Of a stretch of DNA of 64,000 nt, positions 12,474 to 23,104 are shown piece after piece (the first letter of the stretch is position 1; every line of letters starts with the position of its first letter). The stretch comes from Candidatus Omnitrophota bacterium. GTDB lineage: Bacteria > Omnitrophota > Gorgyraeia > JAGLLT01. The position numbers and the translations under genes were made by a program. Where the stretch lies: the NCBI GenBank assembly GCA_030632085.1, contig DAOVJY010000001.1:207402-271401 (forward strand), read 5' to 3'. The notes under the pieces are model-generated. The model saw only the letters and a program-made list of their open reading frames with translations. It made no database searches and was not told the origin of the DNA.

Positions 12474-12483
12474 AAATAAATCC

Positions 12484-12639
12484 TTACTTTTTCTTTGCGA
12501 TTAAGAAAATATCTCTAAATCCTTCTTTTTTGAATTTATGAGTTATAAGCCTCTTCACAGACTTAAAATCTCTATAGATAATCTTTTTAAGAAAATATTT
12601 AAAAAAATAAAAAAAGTTGGAGAAACTAACCACTCGCAT
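12484..12639 (-). pseudogene. Remnant of the 3' end of a methyltransferase paralog, 51 codons
   Basis: The minus-strand translation ...SFSNFFYFFKYFLKKIIYRDFKSVKRLITHKFKKEGFRDIFLIAKKK* aligns with the C-terminus of the methyltransferase at 12881..13606 (...NLSIPFFYLSKYLFKINLYKKPFIEKIITREYEKDGFRDIFLVCKKIKGNEE*). The upstream frame is closed by a stop codon. Confidence 0.5.
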
Positions 12640-12650
12640 TCTCTAATAAA

Positions 12651-12878
12651 TTATTTATGGAAAGCTGCCAGTAGAAATCTTAGGCCCGGCTGATAATCAG
12701 AGAGAGATTCGATTAAGAATTTATCCATCCATTTGGGATAGTGTTTGTTTTCTCTGATATAATCTGCTACCATCAGATGTCTCCAACTATCTACTCCGAA
12801 ATGCCTGATGCTGAAGCGGGGCCTAACTTGAATAATAAAACTAAGTGCTGTAATAAAAATACCAACAAGCAAAAACAA
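12651..12878 (-). pseudogene. Truncated N-terminal remnant (75 aa) of an ArnT-like GT-C membrane protein paralog
   Basis: MFLLVGIFITALSFIIQVRPRFSIRHFGVDSWRHLMVADYIRENKHYPKWMD...RFLLAAFHK* is about 55% identical to the first 78 aa of 10947..12473. It stops where the full-length proteins continue for a further 430 aa. Confidence 0.6.
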
Positions 12879-12880
12879 TG

Positions 12881-13606
12881 TTATTCCTCATTACCTTTAA
12901 TTTTCTTACAAACTAAAAATATATCTCTAAAACCATCTTTTTCATATTCACGGGTAATAATTTTTTCTATAAAAGGCTTCTTATACAAATTAATTTTAAA
13001 CAAGTATTTAGAAAGATAAAAGAAAGGGATGGAAAGATTTGTTAATACTCCTCCTTTTAACATGAGTTTTTCAAATTCAAAACCTTTATCAGCTAACATC
13101 TGTCTTAAATTTTCTACGTTGTAATGCCGATGGCCCACTAACCAGTGCGCTACATCAAAGATATTACCCATCAACTCACTACGAGGAGTCGTTATTATGA
13201 ATGAGCCCCCTATTTTTAGCACTCTATTTACTTCTTTAAAAAGCTGCGGCTCGGTATTTTTAGGAATATGCTCTAAAACCATAAACAGACTCACCACATC
13301 AAAGGAATTATCCTCAAAGGGCAGGCAAAATGCATCAGCTGCCCCAAAAGTACAATGGGGATTCGCTTCCTTGGCTATTTTTAAAGCTGCCAGGGATATA
13401 TCTACGCCAGTAATCTGACAATCGTCATCTTTAAACTGGGTTTCAAAACTAGCTGTCCAACAGCCGATATTCAAAACCTTTTTACCTTCAAAATATGGTT
13501 TAATTAATTTGTAAATAATCTTATGAAAAACGTCCGGAGTCGGTTCATCAAAACTCTTTAGAAAATTCAACTCATGAATTATGCGCTTCTTATTATCTTT
13601 TGGCAT
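12881..13606 (-). CDS. Class I SAM-dependent methyltransferase
   Basis: Motif VLNIGCWTASF, a motif II Asp and a VLEHI motif. Its start lies 2 nt after the upstream stop. Confidence 0.7.
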   Translation of the reverse strand: MPKDNKKRIIHELNFLKSFDEPTPDVFHKIIYKLIKPYFEGKKVLNIGCWTASFETQFKDDDCQITGVDISLAALKIAKEANPHCTFGAADAFCLPFEDNSFDVVSLFMVLEHIPKNTEPQLFKEVNRVLKIGGSFIITTPRSELMGNIFDVAHWLVGHRHYNVENLRQMLADKGFEFEKLMLKGGVLTNLSIPFFYLSKYLFKINLYKKPFIEKIITREYEKDGFRDIFLVCKKIKGNEE

Positions 13607-13608
13607 TT

Positions 13609-15066
13609 TTATCTTCTGACCTTTACAAAATCTCTGATATGCCCTATGACCGGTTTTATACCTCTGCCTAAATATCTAATATATTCTAAATCTCTAATTT
13701 TTAAGATATGGCGCAATATAAATCTAGGATGCAGAAATATTTTATATATATCATGACAAATCTTCATTATTTCTTCTTCAGTTGCATCAGGTGTTTTTAA
13801 TATCGGATGGCACATATCGAATTGCTCATAATCATCTTTATCAATCTTAAGCCAGTTGTTTTCCACAGCCTCCTCATAAAGAGGTGTCCCGGGATAACTC
13901 ATAATCACAGTTGATTGCAACATATCGGCATAACCGTTAAGCATCAGATATCTGGCTAGTTTAAGGGTATCGAGCATGTCTTGCTTAGTTTCCCAGGGAT
14001 AGCCGACCATCATTGTTAAATGGACTGTCAGTCCGGCCTGCTTAGCTATTTTGCTACCCTCTATTATCTGGGCAACGGTTGTACCTTTATCAAGCCGCTT
14101 TAGAGTTTCATCGCTGGCTGATTCCAGACCACATTTCATGAGCCGGAAGCCCGCTTTTTTCATTAACTTGGCTCGTTCAAGAGTTAAATAATCATACCTG
14201 AAATTACAGGATATGTATATCTTCTTATTGTAACCTCTTTCAATCATTCCGTTACAAAATTCTGTTAACCACTTGCCAGAAGGAAAAGTTCCGGTATCAT
14301 CAAATATTTCACCGATATCATATTTTCCAATCAACAATCCAATTTCATTTAGTAAGCTCTCAGGGCTTCTGGTTCTAAACTTGGGAAAAAGTGTGGTCCA
14401 GGAACAAAATTTACATTTGGCCCAAGGACAGTCTCTTCCAACCATAGTATAAGTGAATGGCTCTCTTTTATAAAGCCGTTCACCATATAAACGCCACTTA
14501 GTCAGCTCTCTATCAACTAAAGGCAGAGTATTTAAATCATGATTAAGCTCAAACTTACCGGTACTTTTTATTTGTCCATTATTTCGATACCAGATACCAG
14601 GCTCCAGCGTTTCTTTTTTTTCTAAATATTTAACTATATTTGAGAGAAGAAAATCATAATCCCCTCCGGTAAGACAAAAATCAACTTTTGAATTTTGCAT
14701 ACTTTCATCCGGCTTAGCCGTAATGTGATCTCCCATTAAGACTGTAATGCATTCAGGATTGATGCTTTTAAGTTCATCAACTATTTTCCAGTGCTGCCTA
14801 ACGACCGGGGTTTTTGTCTCCAGGGCAATTAAATCGGGTTTTTCTTTCTTGACAAAATCGATAAATTCCTCATATTGCCATTTTTCAGCAATGCAATCAT
14901 TCCATACAACCTCATGGCCCTCTTCTTTTAAAAGAGTTGCCGCTGAAGCCGGCACCATGGGATATATATAAGATGGATTATGAAAATATTGAAACTGTCT
15001 ATTCTGCCCAAGCATAGGTATTCCTTTAGCATCCGGTATTGGTGGATATGAAATCATTATTTTCAT
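13609..15066 (-). CDS. B12-binding-domain radical SAM protein
   Basis: The N-terminus has a Rossmann-like B12-binding domain. The core carries GRDCPWAKCKFC (a Cys triad with Cx4Cx2C spacing), DDTGTF (glycine-rich SAM motif), CGLESASDETL (GxESxS ribose motif) and TMMVGYPWET (the xVGxPGET motif typical of B12-rSAM and Elp3-like enzymes). Confidence 0.7.
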   Translation of the reverse strand: MKIMISYPPIPDAKGIPMLGQNRQFQYFHNPSYIYPMVPASAATLLKEEGHEVVWNDCIAEKWQYEEFIDFVKKEKPDLIALETKTPVVRQHWKIVDELKSINPECITVLMGDHITAKPDESMQNSKVDFCLTGGDYDFLLSNIVKYLEKKETLEPGIWYRNNGQIKSTGKFELNHDLNTLPLVDRELTKWRLYGERLYKREPFTYTMVGRDCPWAKCKFCSWTTLFPKFRTRSPESLLNEIGLLIGKYDIGEIFDDTGTFPSGKWLTEFCNGMIERGYNKKIYISCNFRYDYLTLERAKLMKKAGFRLMKCGLESASDETLKRLDKGTTVAQIIEGSKIAKQAGLTVHLTMMVGYPWETKQDMLDTLKLARYLMLNGYADMLQSTVIMSYPGTPLYEEAVENNWLKIDKDDYEQFDMCHPILKTPDATEEEIMKICHDIYKIFLHPRFILRHILKIRDLEYIRYLGRGIKPVIGHIRDFVKVRR

Positions 15067-18000
15067 TTTTTATATCTTCCCTTCCTTTGACGATCATAAC
15101 ATAGGTAAGATATTGATATAATAAGAGTAATAAATGAAACACTTAGACCTAAATAAAATAAGTTTTGTACCTTATAGTTAATTACTATTGTTGAACCTTT
15201 TTTATATTCGGACTTATCAATTTTCCATCCATTTGCATAGCCATCTATTATGAAATGTTCATCAAGTTTAGACTTCTTACCTGAATTACGATTAATAATA
15301 TATGCTTCCCATTCTGAGTTATAAGCTTCCCGAAAATATAAAAAAGATACCTTATTGCTATCGCGTAAAACATTATATTTAGTTTGATTAATCTTTTTAT
15401 ATTTGAGAGGATATGAAAATTCTTGAGTATCGTCTTTAGATGATACTTCAAGGCAACATTTACCCATATTTGCCTGAGCAAATCCAACACTATGCAGTCC
15501 CTCAGGAAAAAATATACTTTCATATATATAACAGTTAACACCATCTAAATTCTTTAGTTCAAATGATATTTCCTTTTCATCTAAACAAACCTTTTTATTC
15601 TTTGTTTGAATGTTTTCACTTACTAAACTATCATAAGGGTAAATTCTGATGTTGTAATCACCCGATTTTGGTATATATATATCACTTTTATAATATTCAT
15701 TACCTATAACCACATCTTTAATAGCACAAGTTACACTTCTCCCATATTTATAACTTTCTTTATCGGGCGAATAAAATGAAATATAATTATCACCCGGTTT
15801 TAATTTAATGCCTTTTAAAATTGTTGTTCGAACCATATCTTTTGGTAAAAAACACATTGAAAGATACGTATCGTTTATATAATAATACATATATCTATCC
15901 ATTTCATATGAATATACATCAAATTTGACATTGGTAATAACTTCTTCACTACTCCTATTATCTATGATAATTGTTTTTCCGTTAGCTGATATTAACCAGT
16001 TCCATTTCGCTTCTTCCGGATTTTTTTTAAATTTAAAAACATTAATTAACTTTGGACTGTTATATTCGCTATTCCATTGAGTATCTTCGGATCTGACTTC
16101 TGACTGCATTTTTTCTGATGATAAAAAATATGTTAAACCCTTACCTTTTTCTCTCAAGCATCTCAGCAATAAATTTCGATATAAATCATTATATGTATCA
16201 AAAACAGCTTTGGGTAATATAATTAAATTAATTTCTTTACTTCCAAGTATGCTCTTTTCCTGATTGGTTAATCTTATTTCAATAACACGCTTTCCTTTTT
16301 TTATATAAAAATTTGCAATGTTAATCCATTTCAAAGAAAAATCGTCCTGAATTAGATCCTTTCTAGCTTGCCCAATTTGTCCATCAATTTTTACATTAAG
16401 TTTGCGGCTATATATGTTGTATATATCCTGTTCAATCCATACCTGATACAAATTTTCAATGCTTGCCTCAAAATTAAATATATGTCCGTTATTAGCTTGT
16501 AAATCGTCACTTAATAGAGTAATTTTATGTTCGGGTTCTATAAAATCAAATACAAAATCAGAAAAATTAGCATTGTAAAAGAAAATTTTCTCAATTCCTC
16601 CATTGAGTTCTTCTTTAATGAAAGTATGATTTATTTTTTGACTAGATAAAATAACAGGTAAGTCATTCATAATATTAATATAACTTAAAGGAGAAAAAGC
16701 TGAAACTTTACCGACTAACATAGCTAACTTAGATGTTTCCCCAATATAAACCGGGTCATCCTGATTTTGATATAATTGCCACTTGCCATAAGTGCCTAAA
16801 AGATTAATTTTTCTTTGATAGGATAAAGCGCTCTTTAGAAAATCCGGTGAAAGCTTTGAACCAAAAAAATCATACCAGGCATCATTGTGAACTAAGATAT
16901 ATTTTACGTTTAAGACATTCAGAATATTAGCGGCTAGCGGAGTCGTTCTCTCATAAAGGGCGTTGTAATAAGTATTTTTCAGCTTATCAGTATCGGTTGC
17001 ATTACTGTTTCCATATAGTATAGATTTTAATGAGAGCAATGTAAGTAAATGTGGGGGGCCTACATAACCCCATCTATATCCATTAAGCGGTAATGATGGT
17101 AACGCAATAATACGATAATCATTTTCTTGCTTATCCATAAATTTAACAAAATCAATTATATAATTTGGAACCTTTATACCAACAGAAAATGACGTTCCAG
17201 GTTCTCTTATCCTAATAACTTGTCCGTTTAACATTGGATAGCTGTAGATAAAATTACAACATAAAATTATTATTATAAATACTGTAGGTATCATGCTATT
17301 AAGGTTATACTTTTGGTGCAATATTGTTCTTTTGCAACAATTTTTAATCTTTGTGTACAAATATATCAAAGTAACACTTATTAAATACGAATATGCCAAG
17401 GAAATAATTAACGCGAATTTATAATATGGGCTTCTAAATACCTGAAAAAAAGGCACATTTTCAGTCATCCACAAGTAAAATTTGCCCGTGGGCATATGAG
17501 CACCGCAAGCTAAAACCGTGGCAATTATACTCATTACAACAAAAAAAACTTCGTGAAATTTCTTTTTAATAATAATTGCAGAGTAAGCCAATGCAGGAAT
17601 TAATACACTCCAAATTATCAAAAATGGATTAGTGAAATATGTTTTAGCATAGGGAACATAAGGCACATTAACCCTGGCGTCATAGTACCAATCCCATGCT
17701 CCCTGAAAGCGGGAAACATTTAAAATAGAGGTGTGGGTACTTATTCCCTTAAGCCAGTTAGCCAAATTAAACGCCCCTAAGCCGTAATTCACACTGGCCA
17801 TCAATCTTGCAACAACTTCACGCAAATAAGGTAACCACCAAAAAGCGTTTATACCGATAAAGATAAGGATAATTAAAGCAAAAAAACTTATAACGTTACA
17901 TATATTTTTAAAGGCATCCTTTGAAAATATCCTATTTATAATATAAAAAATTGCGTATGAGACAATCAACAATAGTGGCATAGCAAAAATAGGAGGACTA

Positions 18001-18575
18001 GCTCCCCATTCAGACACTAATAGTGAAAACAGTCCTATGTAAATAGCAGCCTTAAAATAACTTATATCTTTCCTTAGGCCCTTAATCATAAAAGCTAATA
18101 TTATCGGCATACCAACATAAGCTGAAATATTGGCAGCCTTCCCTACTTCCCAAATATTAAAAACCAGTGGATTAAAAGCATAGAAACAGACAGCTATTAA
18201 TCTTTGCAAGCGATTCGGTTTCGCCTGAATGACAGCAACCATGTAATAAATGGCCACTTCTATCATTAAAAACCAAAATATAAAAAGAATCTTCTGCGAT
18301 ATAATTGCTGACATACCGAAAAAATTGCAAATGGCTTGAGGTAAATAATAGAATAGACTTGTAGCATAAATAGCAGATGGCATACCGGCGCCAAAACGAG
18401 AATCCCACATAAAAAAACGTGCTGTATAAAACTTAATAGGATTGTACAAAGGATAAACCGCATCTGAACCAGCCACAGCTATTCCGCCTTTGAACCAAAG
18501 CAGGGGCACGAGTCCTAATAAAAAAATTACTAATAAATCCTGTAATAATGCATTTTTACTTTTATTATTATTCAT
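15063..18575 (-). CDS. Large polytopic membrane protein, putative GT-C glycosyltransferase (AftD/DUF3367-like), 1170 aa
   Basis: The N-terminal roughly 480 aa are multi-transmembrane. The first loop GSDAVYPLYNPIKFYTARFFMWDSRFGAG aligns with the AftD N-terminal motif (PDTKLDLTANPLRFLARATNLWNSDLPFGQ). The large soluble C-terminal domain ends ...ANGW... plus a transmembrane anchor. Confidence 0.5.
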   Translation of the reverse strand: MNNNKSKNALLQDLLVIFLLGLVPLLWFKGGIAVAGSDAVYPLYNPIKFYTARFFMWDSRFGAGMPSAIYATSLFYYLPQAICNFFGMSAIISQKILFIFWFLMIEVAIYYMVAVIQAKPNRLQRLIAVCFYAFNPLVFNIWEVGKAANISAYVGMPIILAFMIKGLRKDISYFKAAIYIGLFSLLVSEWGASPPIFAMPLLLIVSYAIFYIINRIFSKDAFKNICNVISFFALIILIFIGINAFWWLPYLREVVARLMASVNYGLGAFNLANWLKGISTHTSILNVSRFQGAWDWYYDARVNVPYVPYAKTYFTNPFLIIWSVLIPALAYSAIIIKKKFHEVFFVVMSIIATVLACGAHMPTGKFYLWMTENVPFFQVFRSPYYKFALIISLAYSYLISVTLIYLYTKIKNCCKRTILHQKYNLNSMIPTVFIIIILCCNFIYSYPMLNGQVIRIREPGTSFSVGIKVPNYIIDFVKFMDKQENDYRIIALPSLPLNGYRWGYVGPPHLLTLLSLKSILYGNSNATDTDKLKNTYYNALYERTTPLAANILNVLNVKYILVHNDAWYDFFGSKLSPDFLKSALSYQRKINLLGTYGKWQLYQNQDDPVYIGETSKLAMLVGKVSAFSPLSYINIMNDLPVILSSQKINHTFIKEELNGGIEKIFFYNANFSDFVFDFIEPEHKITLLSDDLQANNGHIFNFEASIENLYQVWIEQDIYNIYSRKLNVKIDGQIGQARKDLIQDDFSLKWINIANFYIKKGKRVIEIRLTNQEKSILGSKEINLIILPKAVFDTYNDLYRNLLLRCLREKGKGLTYFLSSEKMQSEVRSEDTQWNSEYNSPKLINVFKFKKNPEEAKWNWLISANGKTIIIDNRSSEEVITNVKFDVYSYEMDRYMYYYINDTYLSMCFLPKDMVRTTILKGIKLKPGDNYISFYSPDKESYKYGRSVTCAIKDVVIGNEYYKSDIYIPKSGDYNIRIYPYDSLVSENIQTKNKKVCLDEKEISFELKNLDGVNCYIYESIFFPEGLHSVGFAQANMGKCCLEVSSKDDTQEFSYPLKYKKINQTKYNVLRDSNKVSFLYFREAYNSEWEAYIINRNSGKKSKLDEHFIIDGYANGWKIDKSEYKKGSTIVINYKVQNLFYLGLSVSFITLIISISYLCYDRQRKGRYKK

Positions 18576-21574: not shown

Positions 21575-23104
21575 TTAAATTTTTATTAAAACATAAGATT
21601 TTATTGTTTTGACAATCTTTTTGTCGGACAAATTAAGCTCTGAAAAATTAACATAGTGTTCATTGATAAGACAATAATTAATTCTATGCTCCCTAAAAAT
21701 ATCAGATAAAGGTTTTTTAACAATAGGATAAAAATCCTTTAATCCGTCCAGATGAGCCAAAGCACTCTCGGTTGAAAGAATCTTGCAATTCACAAAATAG
21801 GATACCGGAGAAATTAAATACATAGGTATCGTTGCTATGCGCACATCATCATTTAGACTATTAATATAATCCATCATCTCCCATAAATCTTTATGGATGC
21901 TTCTTTCTTTGTCTTTAAGCACGAGCTTCCTTTGGATTAATAAAGTCGGTATATATGCCAAAGTAATTGCCCAAATTATAAATAATGCTCCATACATTAA
22001 ACCATTTTGACTTTTTATTGCAACATTAAAAAGAATAGCTAATAAAATCGCTGTAGGAACAGCTGAATATTCTAAATACCTTTCCGCTTCACCAAGAAAT
22101 CTTATAGGTTTGATTAAATTTACAAGAACAGCTACCACAAAGAGGCTAATAGCCCAGACCAAAAGAAAATCATAAACCGTCGAGGAAACATTAACAAAAG
22201 TTAAGGCAGTTGTCTTTCCAATCAAAAAAAGCATTAAAAATAACAAAAAAACAAACGAATTTGAACCAAATAATGACAGAAGAGGAACTTTCTGCAGTAA
22301 ATTGTAAACTTGATTTATAAAATCAGGGCTTTTATTTTGCTTGTTTTCAATTCCTCGTATTTGATGAGCAAACCTATAATCTATATTTTCTCTGAAAAAA
22401 TTTAGCACAGCTACATGCCCCTTTAATACGGTTAAATAGTACCCCTTTGAAATCACGATGGCGATTAAAACAGCTAACAAGGGTATGCTAATGTATATAA
22501 AATTTAAAGTCCAAACTGAGAAAGCAATGCTTAGGAAAATTAAAGCTTGTAAAGCAAATTTATGAGACAATACTAAAATAACTGACATAAAAAGGGTCAA
22601 TAAAAAAAGTAATGGTTCTTGATAATGAACAGATAAAAGCATTGTAAGAAGAGTAAGTGAAAAAATAAGCTGACTGAAGGATCTTACTGAAAGCTGTGAA
22701 CTTTCAATAATAACTATTGGGGTTAAGCTATAAACTATCTGAGCAATTAAGGCAATTAATAAATTACGTGTTAGAAAATATGTTATAGCAAAAACGATTA
22801 TGCTGTGCAAAGCGTTTATAAAAGGTGAAATCCACCATTGATTTTTCTCTAAAAATTCCTTTCTAAAAAAAGAAAGTATATACAAAAAAATTGGCGGATA
22901 ATCAAAGGGCCCGGCAATTAAGTACTTATCCGGTATTGTTTTGGGAAGTTTGCCATTTTTTCTAATAATGTCAGCCATTTCCAGCAGCTTCCATGTATCA
23001 ACTCCAAAATAGCGATTATATATTCTGGGATATATCTGCAACAAAAAAGCGATACCGGCAATAATTGAGGTTACAAATAAGTTATGCAATAATGTCATAG
23101 CCAT
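21575..23104 (-). CDS. Polytopic membrane protein, putative GT-C glycosyltransferase (ArnT/PMT-like), 509 aa
   Basis: It shares its architecture and the first-loop motif FGVDTWKLLEMADIIRKNGKLP with 10947..12473. Confidence 0.5.
   Translation of the reverse strand: MAMTLLHNLFVTSIIAGIAFLLQIYPRIYNRYFGVDTWKLLEMADIIRKNGKLPKTIPDKYLIAGPFDYPPIFLYILSFFRKEFLEKNQWWISPFINALHSIIVFAITYFLTRNLLIALIAQIVYSLTPIVIIESSQLSVRSFSQLIFSLTLLTMLLSVHYQEPLLFLLTLFMSVILVLSHKFALQALIFLSIAFSVWTLNFIYISIPLLAVLIAIVISKGYYLTVLKGHVAVLNFFRENIDYRFAHQIRGIENKQNKSPDFINQVYNLLQKVPLLSLFGSNSFVFLLFLMLFLIGKTTALTFVNVSSTVYDFLLVWAISLFVVAVLVNLIKPIRFLGEAERYLEYSAVPTAILLAILFNVAIKSQNGLMYGALFIIWAITLAYIPTLLIQRKLVLKDKERSIHKDLWEMMDYINSLNDDVRIATIPMYLISPVSYFVNCKILSTESALAHLDGLKDFYPIVKKPLSDIFREHRINYCLINEHYVNFSELNLSDKKIVKTIKSYVLIKI

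Follow-up and report, generated by a model that had tools for sequence, protein, structure and literature searches.

The window (i.e., the whole stretch of 64,000 nucleotides from a Candidatus Omnitrophota bacterium that was analyzed here) carries on its minus strand, in this order, a B12-binding radical SAM gene, a class I SAM methyltransferase gene, a 75-codon ORF, a 51-codon ORF, a gene for a 508-aa membrane protein and an NAD-dependent epimerase gene. Judging from its genes, which encode GT2, NAD-epimerase/dehydratase, DegT aminotransferase, GNAT and AsnB-like proteins as well as GT-C-fold proteins and methyltransferases, the locus fits the synthesis of a surface polysaccharide or glycoconjugate. 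The original prediction had described the 407-nt stretch between the intact methyltransferase gene and the 508-aa protein gene as the scar of a tandem duplication of this methyltransferase plus GT-C (MT+GT-C) unit followed by an internal deletion. Both small ORFs are indeed present on the minus strand, and the geometry (i.e., full methyltransferase, GT-C N-terminal fragment, methyltransferase C-terminal fragment, full GT-C gene) is as described; the origin of the two fragments was found to be different, as set out below. The features of the locus are listed in Table 1, in which the radical SAM (rSAM), methyltransferase (MT) and GT-C (GTC) genes of two diverged versions of the locus are distinguished as type A and type B.

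Table 1. Features of the glycan locus in the window, with coordinates, strand and basis of the assignment.
Feature	Coordinates	Strand	Basis
B12-binding radical SAM gene, apparently chimeric (approx. 35 first codons type A, rest type B)	13609..15066	-	Pfam B12-binding and Radical_SAM; informative-site track
Predicted left homologous crossover interval of the putative imported type-B segment	14953..14965	-	Informative sites switch from A to B
MT_B, intact class I SAM methyltransferase gene of type B, 241 aa	12881..13606	-	Pfam Methyltransf_11/25/31; 84-96% to type-B methyltransferases, 44% to type-A methyltransferases
75-codon ORF, TTG start	12651..12878	-	ORF list
5' remnant of type-B GT-C gene (GTC_B codons 1 to approx. 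88), pseudogene	12616..12878	-	77-89% aa identity to intact type-B genes (503 aa)
Nonsense mutation GAA to TAA at codon 76, closing the 75-codon ORF	12651..12653	-	GAA in 7/7 intact type-B genes compared
Putative illegitimate joint, microhomology TTTCTCCA	12618..12625	-	Sequence common to both parental gene types; homology switches there
51-codon ORF, apparently a chance chimeric frame across the joint	12484..12639	-	Codons 1-8 GTC_B-derived, codons 9-51 MT_A-derived
3' remnant of type-A methyltransferase gene (MT_A last 43 codons and stop)	12484..12617	-	71-74% aa identity to C-termini of L006/L007
Native type-A intergenic spacer with AAGGA ribosome-binding motif ahead of GTC_A	12474..12483	-	Spacer with 1 mismatch to L006; conserved in L052 and L055
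GTC_A, intact type-A gene for a GT-C-fold membrane glycosyltransferase-like protein, 508 aa	10947..12473	-	Full-length ORF; 91% to L006, 78% to L007, 48% to type B

The 508-aa protein was characterized by sequence and by predicted structure. Neither GTC_A nor GTC_C nor the type-B protein P0009 matched a Pfam or NCBIfam family at an E value of 0.01 or better. An AlphaFold (AF2) model of the 508-aa protein, built on 60 homologues, had a pLDDT of 93.8 and a pTM of 0.92, and the top 25 Foldseek matches in the PDB were all enzymes of the GT-C superfamily (i.e., the oligosaccharyltransferases STT3, AglB and PglB as well as ArnT, DPY19, ALG9 and AftA), with E values of 1e-7 to 1e-4, TM scores of approx. 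0.45-0.6 and 10-14% identity to the solved structures. The model points to a protein that is like these enzymes in its GT-C fold but, unlike an ArnT/PMT_2 protein, does not belong to that family by sequence. The term "ArnT-like" used in the original prediction is consequently appropriate at the level of the fold, while no ArnT/PMT_2, Pfam or NCBIfam sequence match supports it. Directly after the first helix, in what is predicted to be the first external loop, members of the family share the motif FG(V/I)DxWRH, the Asp of which is nearly invariant; in the alignment and the model, D32 is at least 90% conserved and is placed just after the predicted first helix. The family occurs in Omnitrophota, Chloroflexota, Nitrospinaceae, Desulfovibrionaceae and Patescibacteria, its usual partner being a class I methyltransferase.

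The product of the 75-codon ORF is 58% identical to the N-terminal end of its 508-aa neighbor (over 71 aa; E = 2e-26) and 42% identical to a second GT-C paralog in the window (21575..23104), in agreement with the similarity to the N-termini of these paralogs that had been reported for it. When the homologues of the 508-aa protein in the database (n = 61) were compared with it, the 75-aa fragment is 80-84% identical to five proteins of 501-503 aa (P0009, P0011, P0012, P0014 and P0015), which are only 47-49% identical to the adjacent GTC_A. In nucleotide alignments, the homology to GTC_B starts with the TTG codon (12878), passes the TAA codon and ends at approx. 12616. As it continues for 12 codons beyond this TAA, the GT-C remnant proper comprises approx. 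88 codons including a nonsense mutation, rather than the 75 codons of the ORF to which the original prediction had confined it. The part that is kept covers only the first transmembrane helix and a portion of the first external loop. Over the 87 alignable residues, the remnant is 76-89% identical to the type-B clade vs. 51-52% to the group of the adjacent GTC_A; across all comparisons, its identity to the adjacent GTC_A is 51-58%. The assignment of the remnant to type B was assessed by an identity-rank bootstrap, in which every type-B protein was nearer to the GT-C remnant than any type-A protein in 1000 of 1000 column resamples.

For the 51-codon ORF, the claimed homology to the C-terminus of the adjacent methyltransferase was found over 42 aa (45% identity; E = 1e-9), beginning at codon 9; codons 1 to 8 (MRVVSFSN), on the other hand, are GT-C-derived DNA read in another frame. 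Since its first 8 codons are out-of-frame GTC_B DNA, the 51-codon ORF is best read as an accident of the joint, i.e., as a chance chimeric frame. The methyltransferase portion shares 71-74% identity with the C-terminal end of the 230-aa MT_A (in L006 and L007) vs. 41-48% with the local 241-aa MT_B and its relatives. Within its first 90 nt, this remnant is only 69-74% identical to MT_A where that gene is intact (L006 and L007) and approx. 80% identical to an MT_A pseudogene found in L061 and L062. Sorted by first, second and third codon position, the MT_A tail shows 10/2/17 differences from L006 and 6/4/18 from L007, while L006 and L007 differ from each other at 10/4/17 positions. As the differences fall mainly at third positions, as they do between L006 and L007, the tail looks like a third type-A allele that has undergone little decay.

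To place both remnants in context, 66 loci were compared; these were obtained by genome, metagenome and exact-protein look-ups, comprising one genome scan and one metagenome scan. The GTDB genome scan yielded no type-B genomes, as type-B genes do not match the motif used for it. Loci of type B (L004, L005 and L003) contain rSAM, MT_B (241 aa), GTC_B (503 aa) and the epimerase gene, and an intact GTC_B directly after MT_B was observed in these three loci as well as in L002, L050 and L051. Loci of type A (L007 and L010, the latter from a Candidatus Omnitrophota MAG) contain rSAM, MT_A (230 aa), GTC_A (508 aa), the epimerase, GNAT, GT2 and AsnB; L007 in addition carries an AftD-like gene upstream of rSAM. 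In L006, the order is MT269, MT_A (230 aa), GTC_A (507 aa) and the epimerase, followed by the same downstream genes as in L007 and L010. MT_A is intact and directly precedes GTC_A in L006, L007 and L010, all of which are free of the scar. Types A and B are anciently diverged (44-48% aa identity). The intact tandem of two MT+GT-C units (MT-GTC-MT-GTC) that the original prediction had suggested looking for in related strains was found in none of the 66 fetched loci.

The discordance between the two types is not confined to the methyltransferase and GT-C genes. Overall, the radical SAM gene of the window is 91% identical to that of L004 (type B) and 74% identical to that of L007 (type A). As informative sites, we analyzed the 272 at which three type-B loci agree with each other but not with L007. 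Among the first 20 of these (up to 14965), 18 have the type-A state in the window, and among the following 252 (from 14953), 219 have the type-B state; the left type-A tract is short, amounting to approx. 100 nt with these 20 informative sites, and lies within a conserved region. The 3' end of the AftD-like gene together with the first approx. 100 nt of rSAM is 88-92% identical at the nucleotide level to type-A L007, unlike in L004, L052 and L055, where the gene upstream of rSAM is a GT2 gene and not an AftD-like gene. In the left block of the window, identity amounts to 84-96% for type-B loci and to 44-74% for type-A loci; in the right block, it is 78-91% for type A and 48-76% for type B. The epimerase is 83% identical to those of L006 and L007 vs. 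76% for type B, and the genes further downstream are 92-99% identical to L006. These patterns indicate that the window is chimeric, with a type-B segment of approx. 2.34 kb (approx. 14960..12618) sitting in a type-A context. Because the discordance reaches into the radical SAM gene, the exchanged unit appears to be rSAM(3')-MT-GTC(5') and not MT+GT-C. Identity between the window and L006 is 96-100% from 12530 to approx. 11650, 72-80% from approx. 11600 to 10150 and 95-98% beyond; as the window turns 96-100% identical to L006 from approx. 12530, at least one further exchange has overprinted the region.

These comparisons bear directly on the original prediction of an in-situ tandem duplication of the neighboring MT+GT-C pair with an internal deletion, under which the divergence of the remnants would reflect their decay. 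The order of the four pieces would be accounted for, and the similarity of both remnants to their neighbors at the nucleotide level, which the original prediction had proposed to check, is significant, amounting to 66% identity along 236 nt and to 73% along 60 nt; the two copies of a direct repeat (12482-12548 and 12894-12960) share 72% identity. This similarity is old, however, and as the nucleotide identities are much too low, the remnants are not recent copies of their neighbors. Each remnant belongs to the other ancient type than its intact neighbor and is far closer to gene types of other genomes than to that neighbor. The divergence is also of the kind left by long purifying selection (as seen in the third positions of the methyltransferase tail and in an omega of approx. 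0.1 for the GT-C remnant vs. intact type-B genes) and not by neutral decay. The A/B discordance recurs in the rSAM and epimerase genes on either side, and an amino acid identity of 44-48% excludes that types A and B are recent copies of each other. Overall, we regard a local duplication as highly improbable.

The comparison of both parental gene types allowed us to place the right joint. Homology to MT_A starts exactly where homology to GTC_B stops (approx. 12616) and then runs to the stop codon at 12484. At the switch (12625..12618 in the window), both parental gene types have TTTCTCC(A), the homologous positions being GTTTCTCCA(G/A) in GTC_B relatives and ATTTCTCC(A/G)A in MT_A relatives. 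GTC_B and MT_A are otherwise unrelated, and the shared microhomology TTTCTCCA measures 7-9 nt; this length and both breakpoints are read from relatives with 70-92% identity, which stand in for the true parents. No inverted or direct repeats pointing to an IS or a MITE were detected at the joint. Just past the joint, each of the MT_A relatives compared (3/3) is longer than the window by 1 nt. Since TCT CCA is in frame in both parental genes, as seen in the relatives, the exchange may first have produced an in-frame GTC_B/MT_A fusion.

As metagenome assemblies form the data basis throughout, we also considered whether the joint could be an artefact, i.e., a chimeric contig assembled from co-occurring type-B and type-A strains. 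Types A and B and chimeric haplotypes do share metagenomes (e.g., L004 and L052 occur in one JGI sample). On the other hand, an independent Logan assembly (L001; SRR13892601, 41.7 kb) contains the same 407-nt stretch with an identical junction, and differs from the window by 2 mismatches in 15.7 kb. A shared sequence of 7-9 nt would moreover be too short for a k-mer assembler to join, the remnant has lesions of its own (i.e., a nonsense codon and the 1-nt length change), and other samples combine MT_B on the left with GTC_A on the right through different joints. There is thus very little probability that the junction was created by assembly.

Upstream of near-identical GTC_A genes (93-94% aa identity), at least five arrangements were found in related contigs, which bears out the original view that this glycan locus is being remodelled. 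In the first (H1; L006 and L007/L010), MT_A is intact, and in the second (H2; L061 and L062), it is frameshifted and internally deleted. The third (H3) is that of the window and L001, i.e., the scar with the GTC_B head and the MT_A tail. In the fourth (H4; L052 and L063-L066), MT_B is followed by a GTC_B head of approx. 55 codons with an in-frame stop, DegT, MT327, the last 4 codons of MT_A and GTC_A. In the fifth (H5; L055-L060, 17 contigs), the GTC_B head is missing, and MT_B is followed by DegT, MT327, a GFO/IDH/MocA gene, a 49-aa DegT head, approx. 20 MT_A codons and GTC_A. The last codons of MT_A and the spacer ahead of GTC_A were kept in all haplotypes, a pattern that would fit selection for the ribosome-binding region of GTC_A. 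Derivation of H4 and H5 from the window by simple nested deletions was considered and rejected, as the order of DegT-MT327 relative to rSAM_B-MT_B differs; the MT327 alleles of H4 and H5 also differ (83% vs. 70%), and neither haplotype can be derived from the window in one simple step.

To determine how the GT-C remnant has changed, its substitutions were polarized with the closest intact type-B gene (L046; dS 0.22) and six outgroups. Eight nonsynonymous changes (A10T, G31S, P59L, P63Q, P74H, E76*, Y81C and A88T) vs. 2-6 synonymous changes fall on the branch leading to the window; P63, which is Gln in the remnant, corresponds to a proline that is invariant across 60/60 family members. L052 carries an independently shortened copy of the GT-C remnant with its own in-frame stop at codon 32. 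Between the window and this copy, 17 differences over 162 nt are spread across the codon positions as 6/6/5 (omega = 0.65), while intact neighboring genes in the same comparison show omega values of 0.05-0.20. Given the nonsense codon, the changed invariant proline and the relaxed dN/dS, the GT-C head is a pseudogene that has been drifting for some time. The word "recent" in the original prediction was thus an overstatement, as the remnant has since acquired a nonsense codon and approx. 8 amino acid replacements, and the joint has changed in length by 1 nt.

It could also be hypothesized that the small ORFs have been kept as functional genes, encoding a 75-aa single-pass membrane peptide or a 51-aa regulator of the neighboring GT-C protein. 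The 75-codon ORF retains its native TTG start, which abuts the MT_B stop, and is probably still translated, and neither frame is interrupted in this AT-rich genome, in which stop codons are common. Nevertheless, the 75-codon ORF ends by a nonsense mutation inside continuing homology, conserved residues including the invariant proline have been lost, the differences from the L052 copy (itself interrupted) follow a neutral pattern, and the 51-aa frame begins in out-of-frame GT-C DNA. The GTC_B remnant is also shorter in H4 and absent in H5, and both remnants are absent in L006 and L007. We consider it very unlikely that either ORF is maintained as a gene, and the sequence evidence suggests that both the 75-codon and the 51-codon ORF should be annotated as pseudogene remnants. 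Searches for other elements in the scar yielded no Rfam match at an E value of 1 or better, promoter-like sites only at chance level and no terminator.

Taken together, the 407-nt stretch is most likely the scar at the right-hand end of a cassette replacement, in which part of a glycan locus was exchanged for the allelic part of an anciently diverged version of that locus, as far as can be read from the sequences compared. The resident locus would have been of type A, with the AftD-like GT-C gene, rSAM_A, MT_A, GTC_A and the epimerase, and approx. 2.3 kb of type-B DNA would have come in from a related lineage, presumably in this direction. The incoming segment would have comprised rSAM_B from approx. 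codon 36 onward, all of MT_B, and GTC_B up to approx. codon 88. Its left end would have been integrated by homologous recombination in the conserved 5' end of the radical SAM gene, and its right end by an illegitimate join at the microhomology to the resident MT_A, approx. 44 codons before its stop. This pattern matches homology-facilitated illegitimate recombination (HFIR), and a single step would be more probable than two. Two dead ends would have been left behind, i.e., the GTC_B head and the MT_A tail. The GTC_B head would then have decayed (nonsense codon, loss of the invariant proline and the 1-nt length change at the joint), whereas the MT_A tail may owe its retention to the native ribosome-binding region of GTC_A, which it carries. 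As a result, the type-B methyltransferases (rSAM_B and MT_B) would be newly paired with a type-A GT-C enzyme, a pairing that presumably alters the methylation or structure of the cell-surface glycan.

The same end product could also have arisen in two steps. A type-B cassette (complete or longer) would first have been inserted beside the type-A genes, giving a heterologous tandem (rSAM_B-MT_B-GTC_B ... MT_A-GTC_A), and a later microhomology-mediated deletion would have removed the DNA from GTC_B codon 88 to approx. MT_A codon 186. This scheme has the duplication-then-deletion geometry of the original prediction, but with non-identical units of foreign origin. The order of the pieces is equally well explained by it, and a scar of duplication plus internal deletion does occur in L002, L047 and L049, where GTC_B, epimerase fragments, a second GTC_B and an epimerase gene follow each other, although a different unit is involved. 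In H4 and H5, MT_B and GTC_A are separated by additional genes, which implies that longer intermediates exist in the population; these genes (DegT and MT327), however, are not the bodies of GTC_B or MT_A. In addition, not one of the 66 loci provided a contig with both cassettes intact, and the left crossover inside rSAM indicates that an allelic segment was replaced and not added. An insertion followed by a deletion is therefore rather unlikely in our view.

A tentative extension would be that the short zone from the stop of the methyltransferase gene to the start of the GT-C gene represents a preferred point of cassette exchange, at which rSAM+MT modules are shuffled against GT-C enzymes and the surface glycan is diversified; phage or predator-prey pressure, for example, may drive such shuffling. 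At least five haplotypes with joints in this zone are compatible with a hotspot, but they are equally compatible with the survivorship of those junctions that leave MT_B and GTC_A intact, and we consider the hotspot doubtful.

The scar is of an ordinary and well-documented kind; such scars are common in surface-polysaccharide loci, and O-antigen and capsule loci have long provided examples of the concept. What is new here is the phylum (Omnitrophota), the exchanged module (i.e., rSAM and methyltransferase vs. an unclassified GT-C-fold enzyme) and the resolution of both breakpoints. The locus therefore provides a base-resolved example of how a glycan locus is rebuilt in an uncultured and poorly understood phylum, for which donor-type and recipient-type loci as well as a series of alternative joints in related populations could be identified. 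It also draws attention to an uncharacterized GT-C-fold family that lacks a Pfam or NCBIfam model.

The closest parallel is found in the O-antigen clusters of Salmonella, which contain gene remnants, including wzy remnants in B1 and D1, and among which D2 has arisen by recombination between D1 and E (Reeves et al. 2013, PMC3715488); O-antigen remnants that differ in length between strains have been termed "serial deletions" (PMC3715488). The locus studied here, a predicted surface-polysaccharide locus, is like these in that one position is taken by divergent alternative gene sets, that recombination between clusters gives rise to new forms and that the junctions are marked by non-functional remnants of the displaced genes. 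It differs in its host, an uncultured Omnitrophota bacterium, in its module, which consists of rSAM, a class I methyltransferase and an uncharacterized GT-C-fold enzyme rather than wzx, wzy and GT genes, and in its joint, which is a bare microhomology without an IS or H-repeat. HFIR is defined for natural transformation and conjugation (PMC3240628). The exchange would resemble HFIR as outlined there in that one end is anchored by homology (here the 5' end of rSAM) and the other is joined at a microhomology of 7-9 nt; in contrast to HFIR, the mechanism is read here from the sequence alone, and a later trimming deletion may also have taken place. In type VI secretion (T6SS) clusters of Vibrio cholerae, effector genes are reported to have been displaced sequentially, with orphan remnants left behind (PMC5361080). 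The replacement of a cassette at a fixed locus, with leftovers of the earlier occupants, would be common to those clusters and to the present locus, the cargo being toxin and immunity genes in the former and glycan synthesis genes in the latter.

Compared with L006, a related type-A locus, the window contains a tract covering the 3' half of GTC_A (the type-A GT-C-fold gene) and most of the epimerase gene in which nucleotide identity is 72-80%, as against 96-100% before it and 95-98% after it; judged from these identities, it looks like a separate recombination tract. In L006 the epimerase gene is broken up into separate ORFs of 138 and 151 aa. Between the window and L052 (haplotype H4), synonymous divergence is 1.08 for the B12-binding radical SAM gene as compared to 0.24 for the adjacent type-B methyltransferase, MT_B, and the type-B block common to both therefore itself appears to be mosaic.

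Features in the window and in related loci (L-numbers)
Feature	Coordinates	Remark
Members of the ~500-aa GT-C-fold family	window:10947-12473, 21575-23104; loci L012-L045	
198-aa methyltransferase gene	window:5373-5969	
Its remnant in L006	L006:8237-8443	last ~69 codons, 94%
GNAT ORF	window:8907-10025	372 aa, TTG start
Membrane proteins of 1039 and 1170 aa	window:1431-4550 and 15063-18575	
Low-identity tract	window:10150-11600	
Radical SAM gene	window:13609-15066; L052:3007-4461	
Scar upstream of GTC_A	L055:14055-14336	same in L056 and L057
GTC_A lesion	L052:7635-7790	1-nt deletion
Close type-A relative with degraded genes	L061:1868-3973; L062:1-430	GTC_A 93%
Epimerase pseudogene between tandem type-B GT-C genes	L002:2892-3155; L047:378-595; L049:134-276	

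A scar unlike that of the window lies upstream of GTC_A in three loci of haplotype H5; it consists of a 49-aa ORF similar to the N-terminus of a DegT aminotransferase (42% over 31 aa, E 7e-5), followed by ~20 codons of the 3' end of the type-A methyltransferase, MT_A, frameshift included. In the L061/L062 locus, MT_A is a frameshifted pseudogene that lacks an internal segment (~aa 69-97), and thus appears to be dispensable in this lineage; radical SAM fragments (aa 142-306 and 466-485) and MT269, the methyltransferase upstream of MT_A in L006, are also present. The deletion near codon 28 of GTC_A in L052 leaves a 456-aa ORF; as the gene is intact (508 aa) in L063-L066, which share this haplotype, the deletion represents a lesion specific to this strain or else a sequencing error.

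The epimerase pseudogene comprises two fragments, ~80% identical to the intact downstream epimerase and carrying stops and frameshifts; it is the scar of a GT-C+epimerase unit that underwent duplication plus internal deletion. In L002, the two GT-C copies share 100% identity in their first 600 nt and 79-93% in the remainder, a pattern suggestive of gene conversion or of an effect of the assembly. The 198-aa methyltransferase gene is absent from L052, and its remnant in L006 is a further partial-deletion scar in the same cluster.

The GNAT ORF has a 79-nt overlap with the epimerase gene; as it is called as 344 aa on the identical Logan contig, a separate assembly, its true start is probably downstream of the TTG.

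The GT-C-fold family, for which no Pfam or NCBIfam model was found, occurs in Omnitrophota, Chloroflexota, Nitrospinaceae, Desulfovibrionaceae, Patescibacteria and others. A class I methyltransferase gene lies directly upstream of the GT-C-fold gene in several loci (L009, L012, L020, L042), suggesting a conserved two-gene module. Neither very large membrane protein received a confident family assignment; their N-termini are alike (32% over ~110 aa, via L052), and the 1170-aa protein shows a weak, sub-threshold AftD GT-C match.
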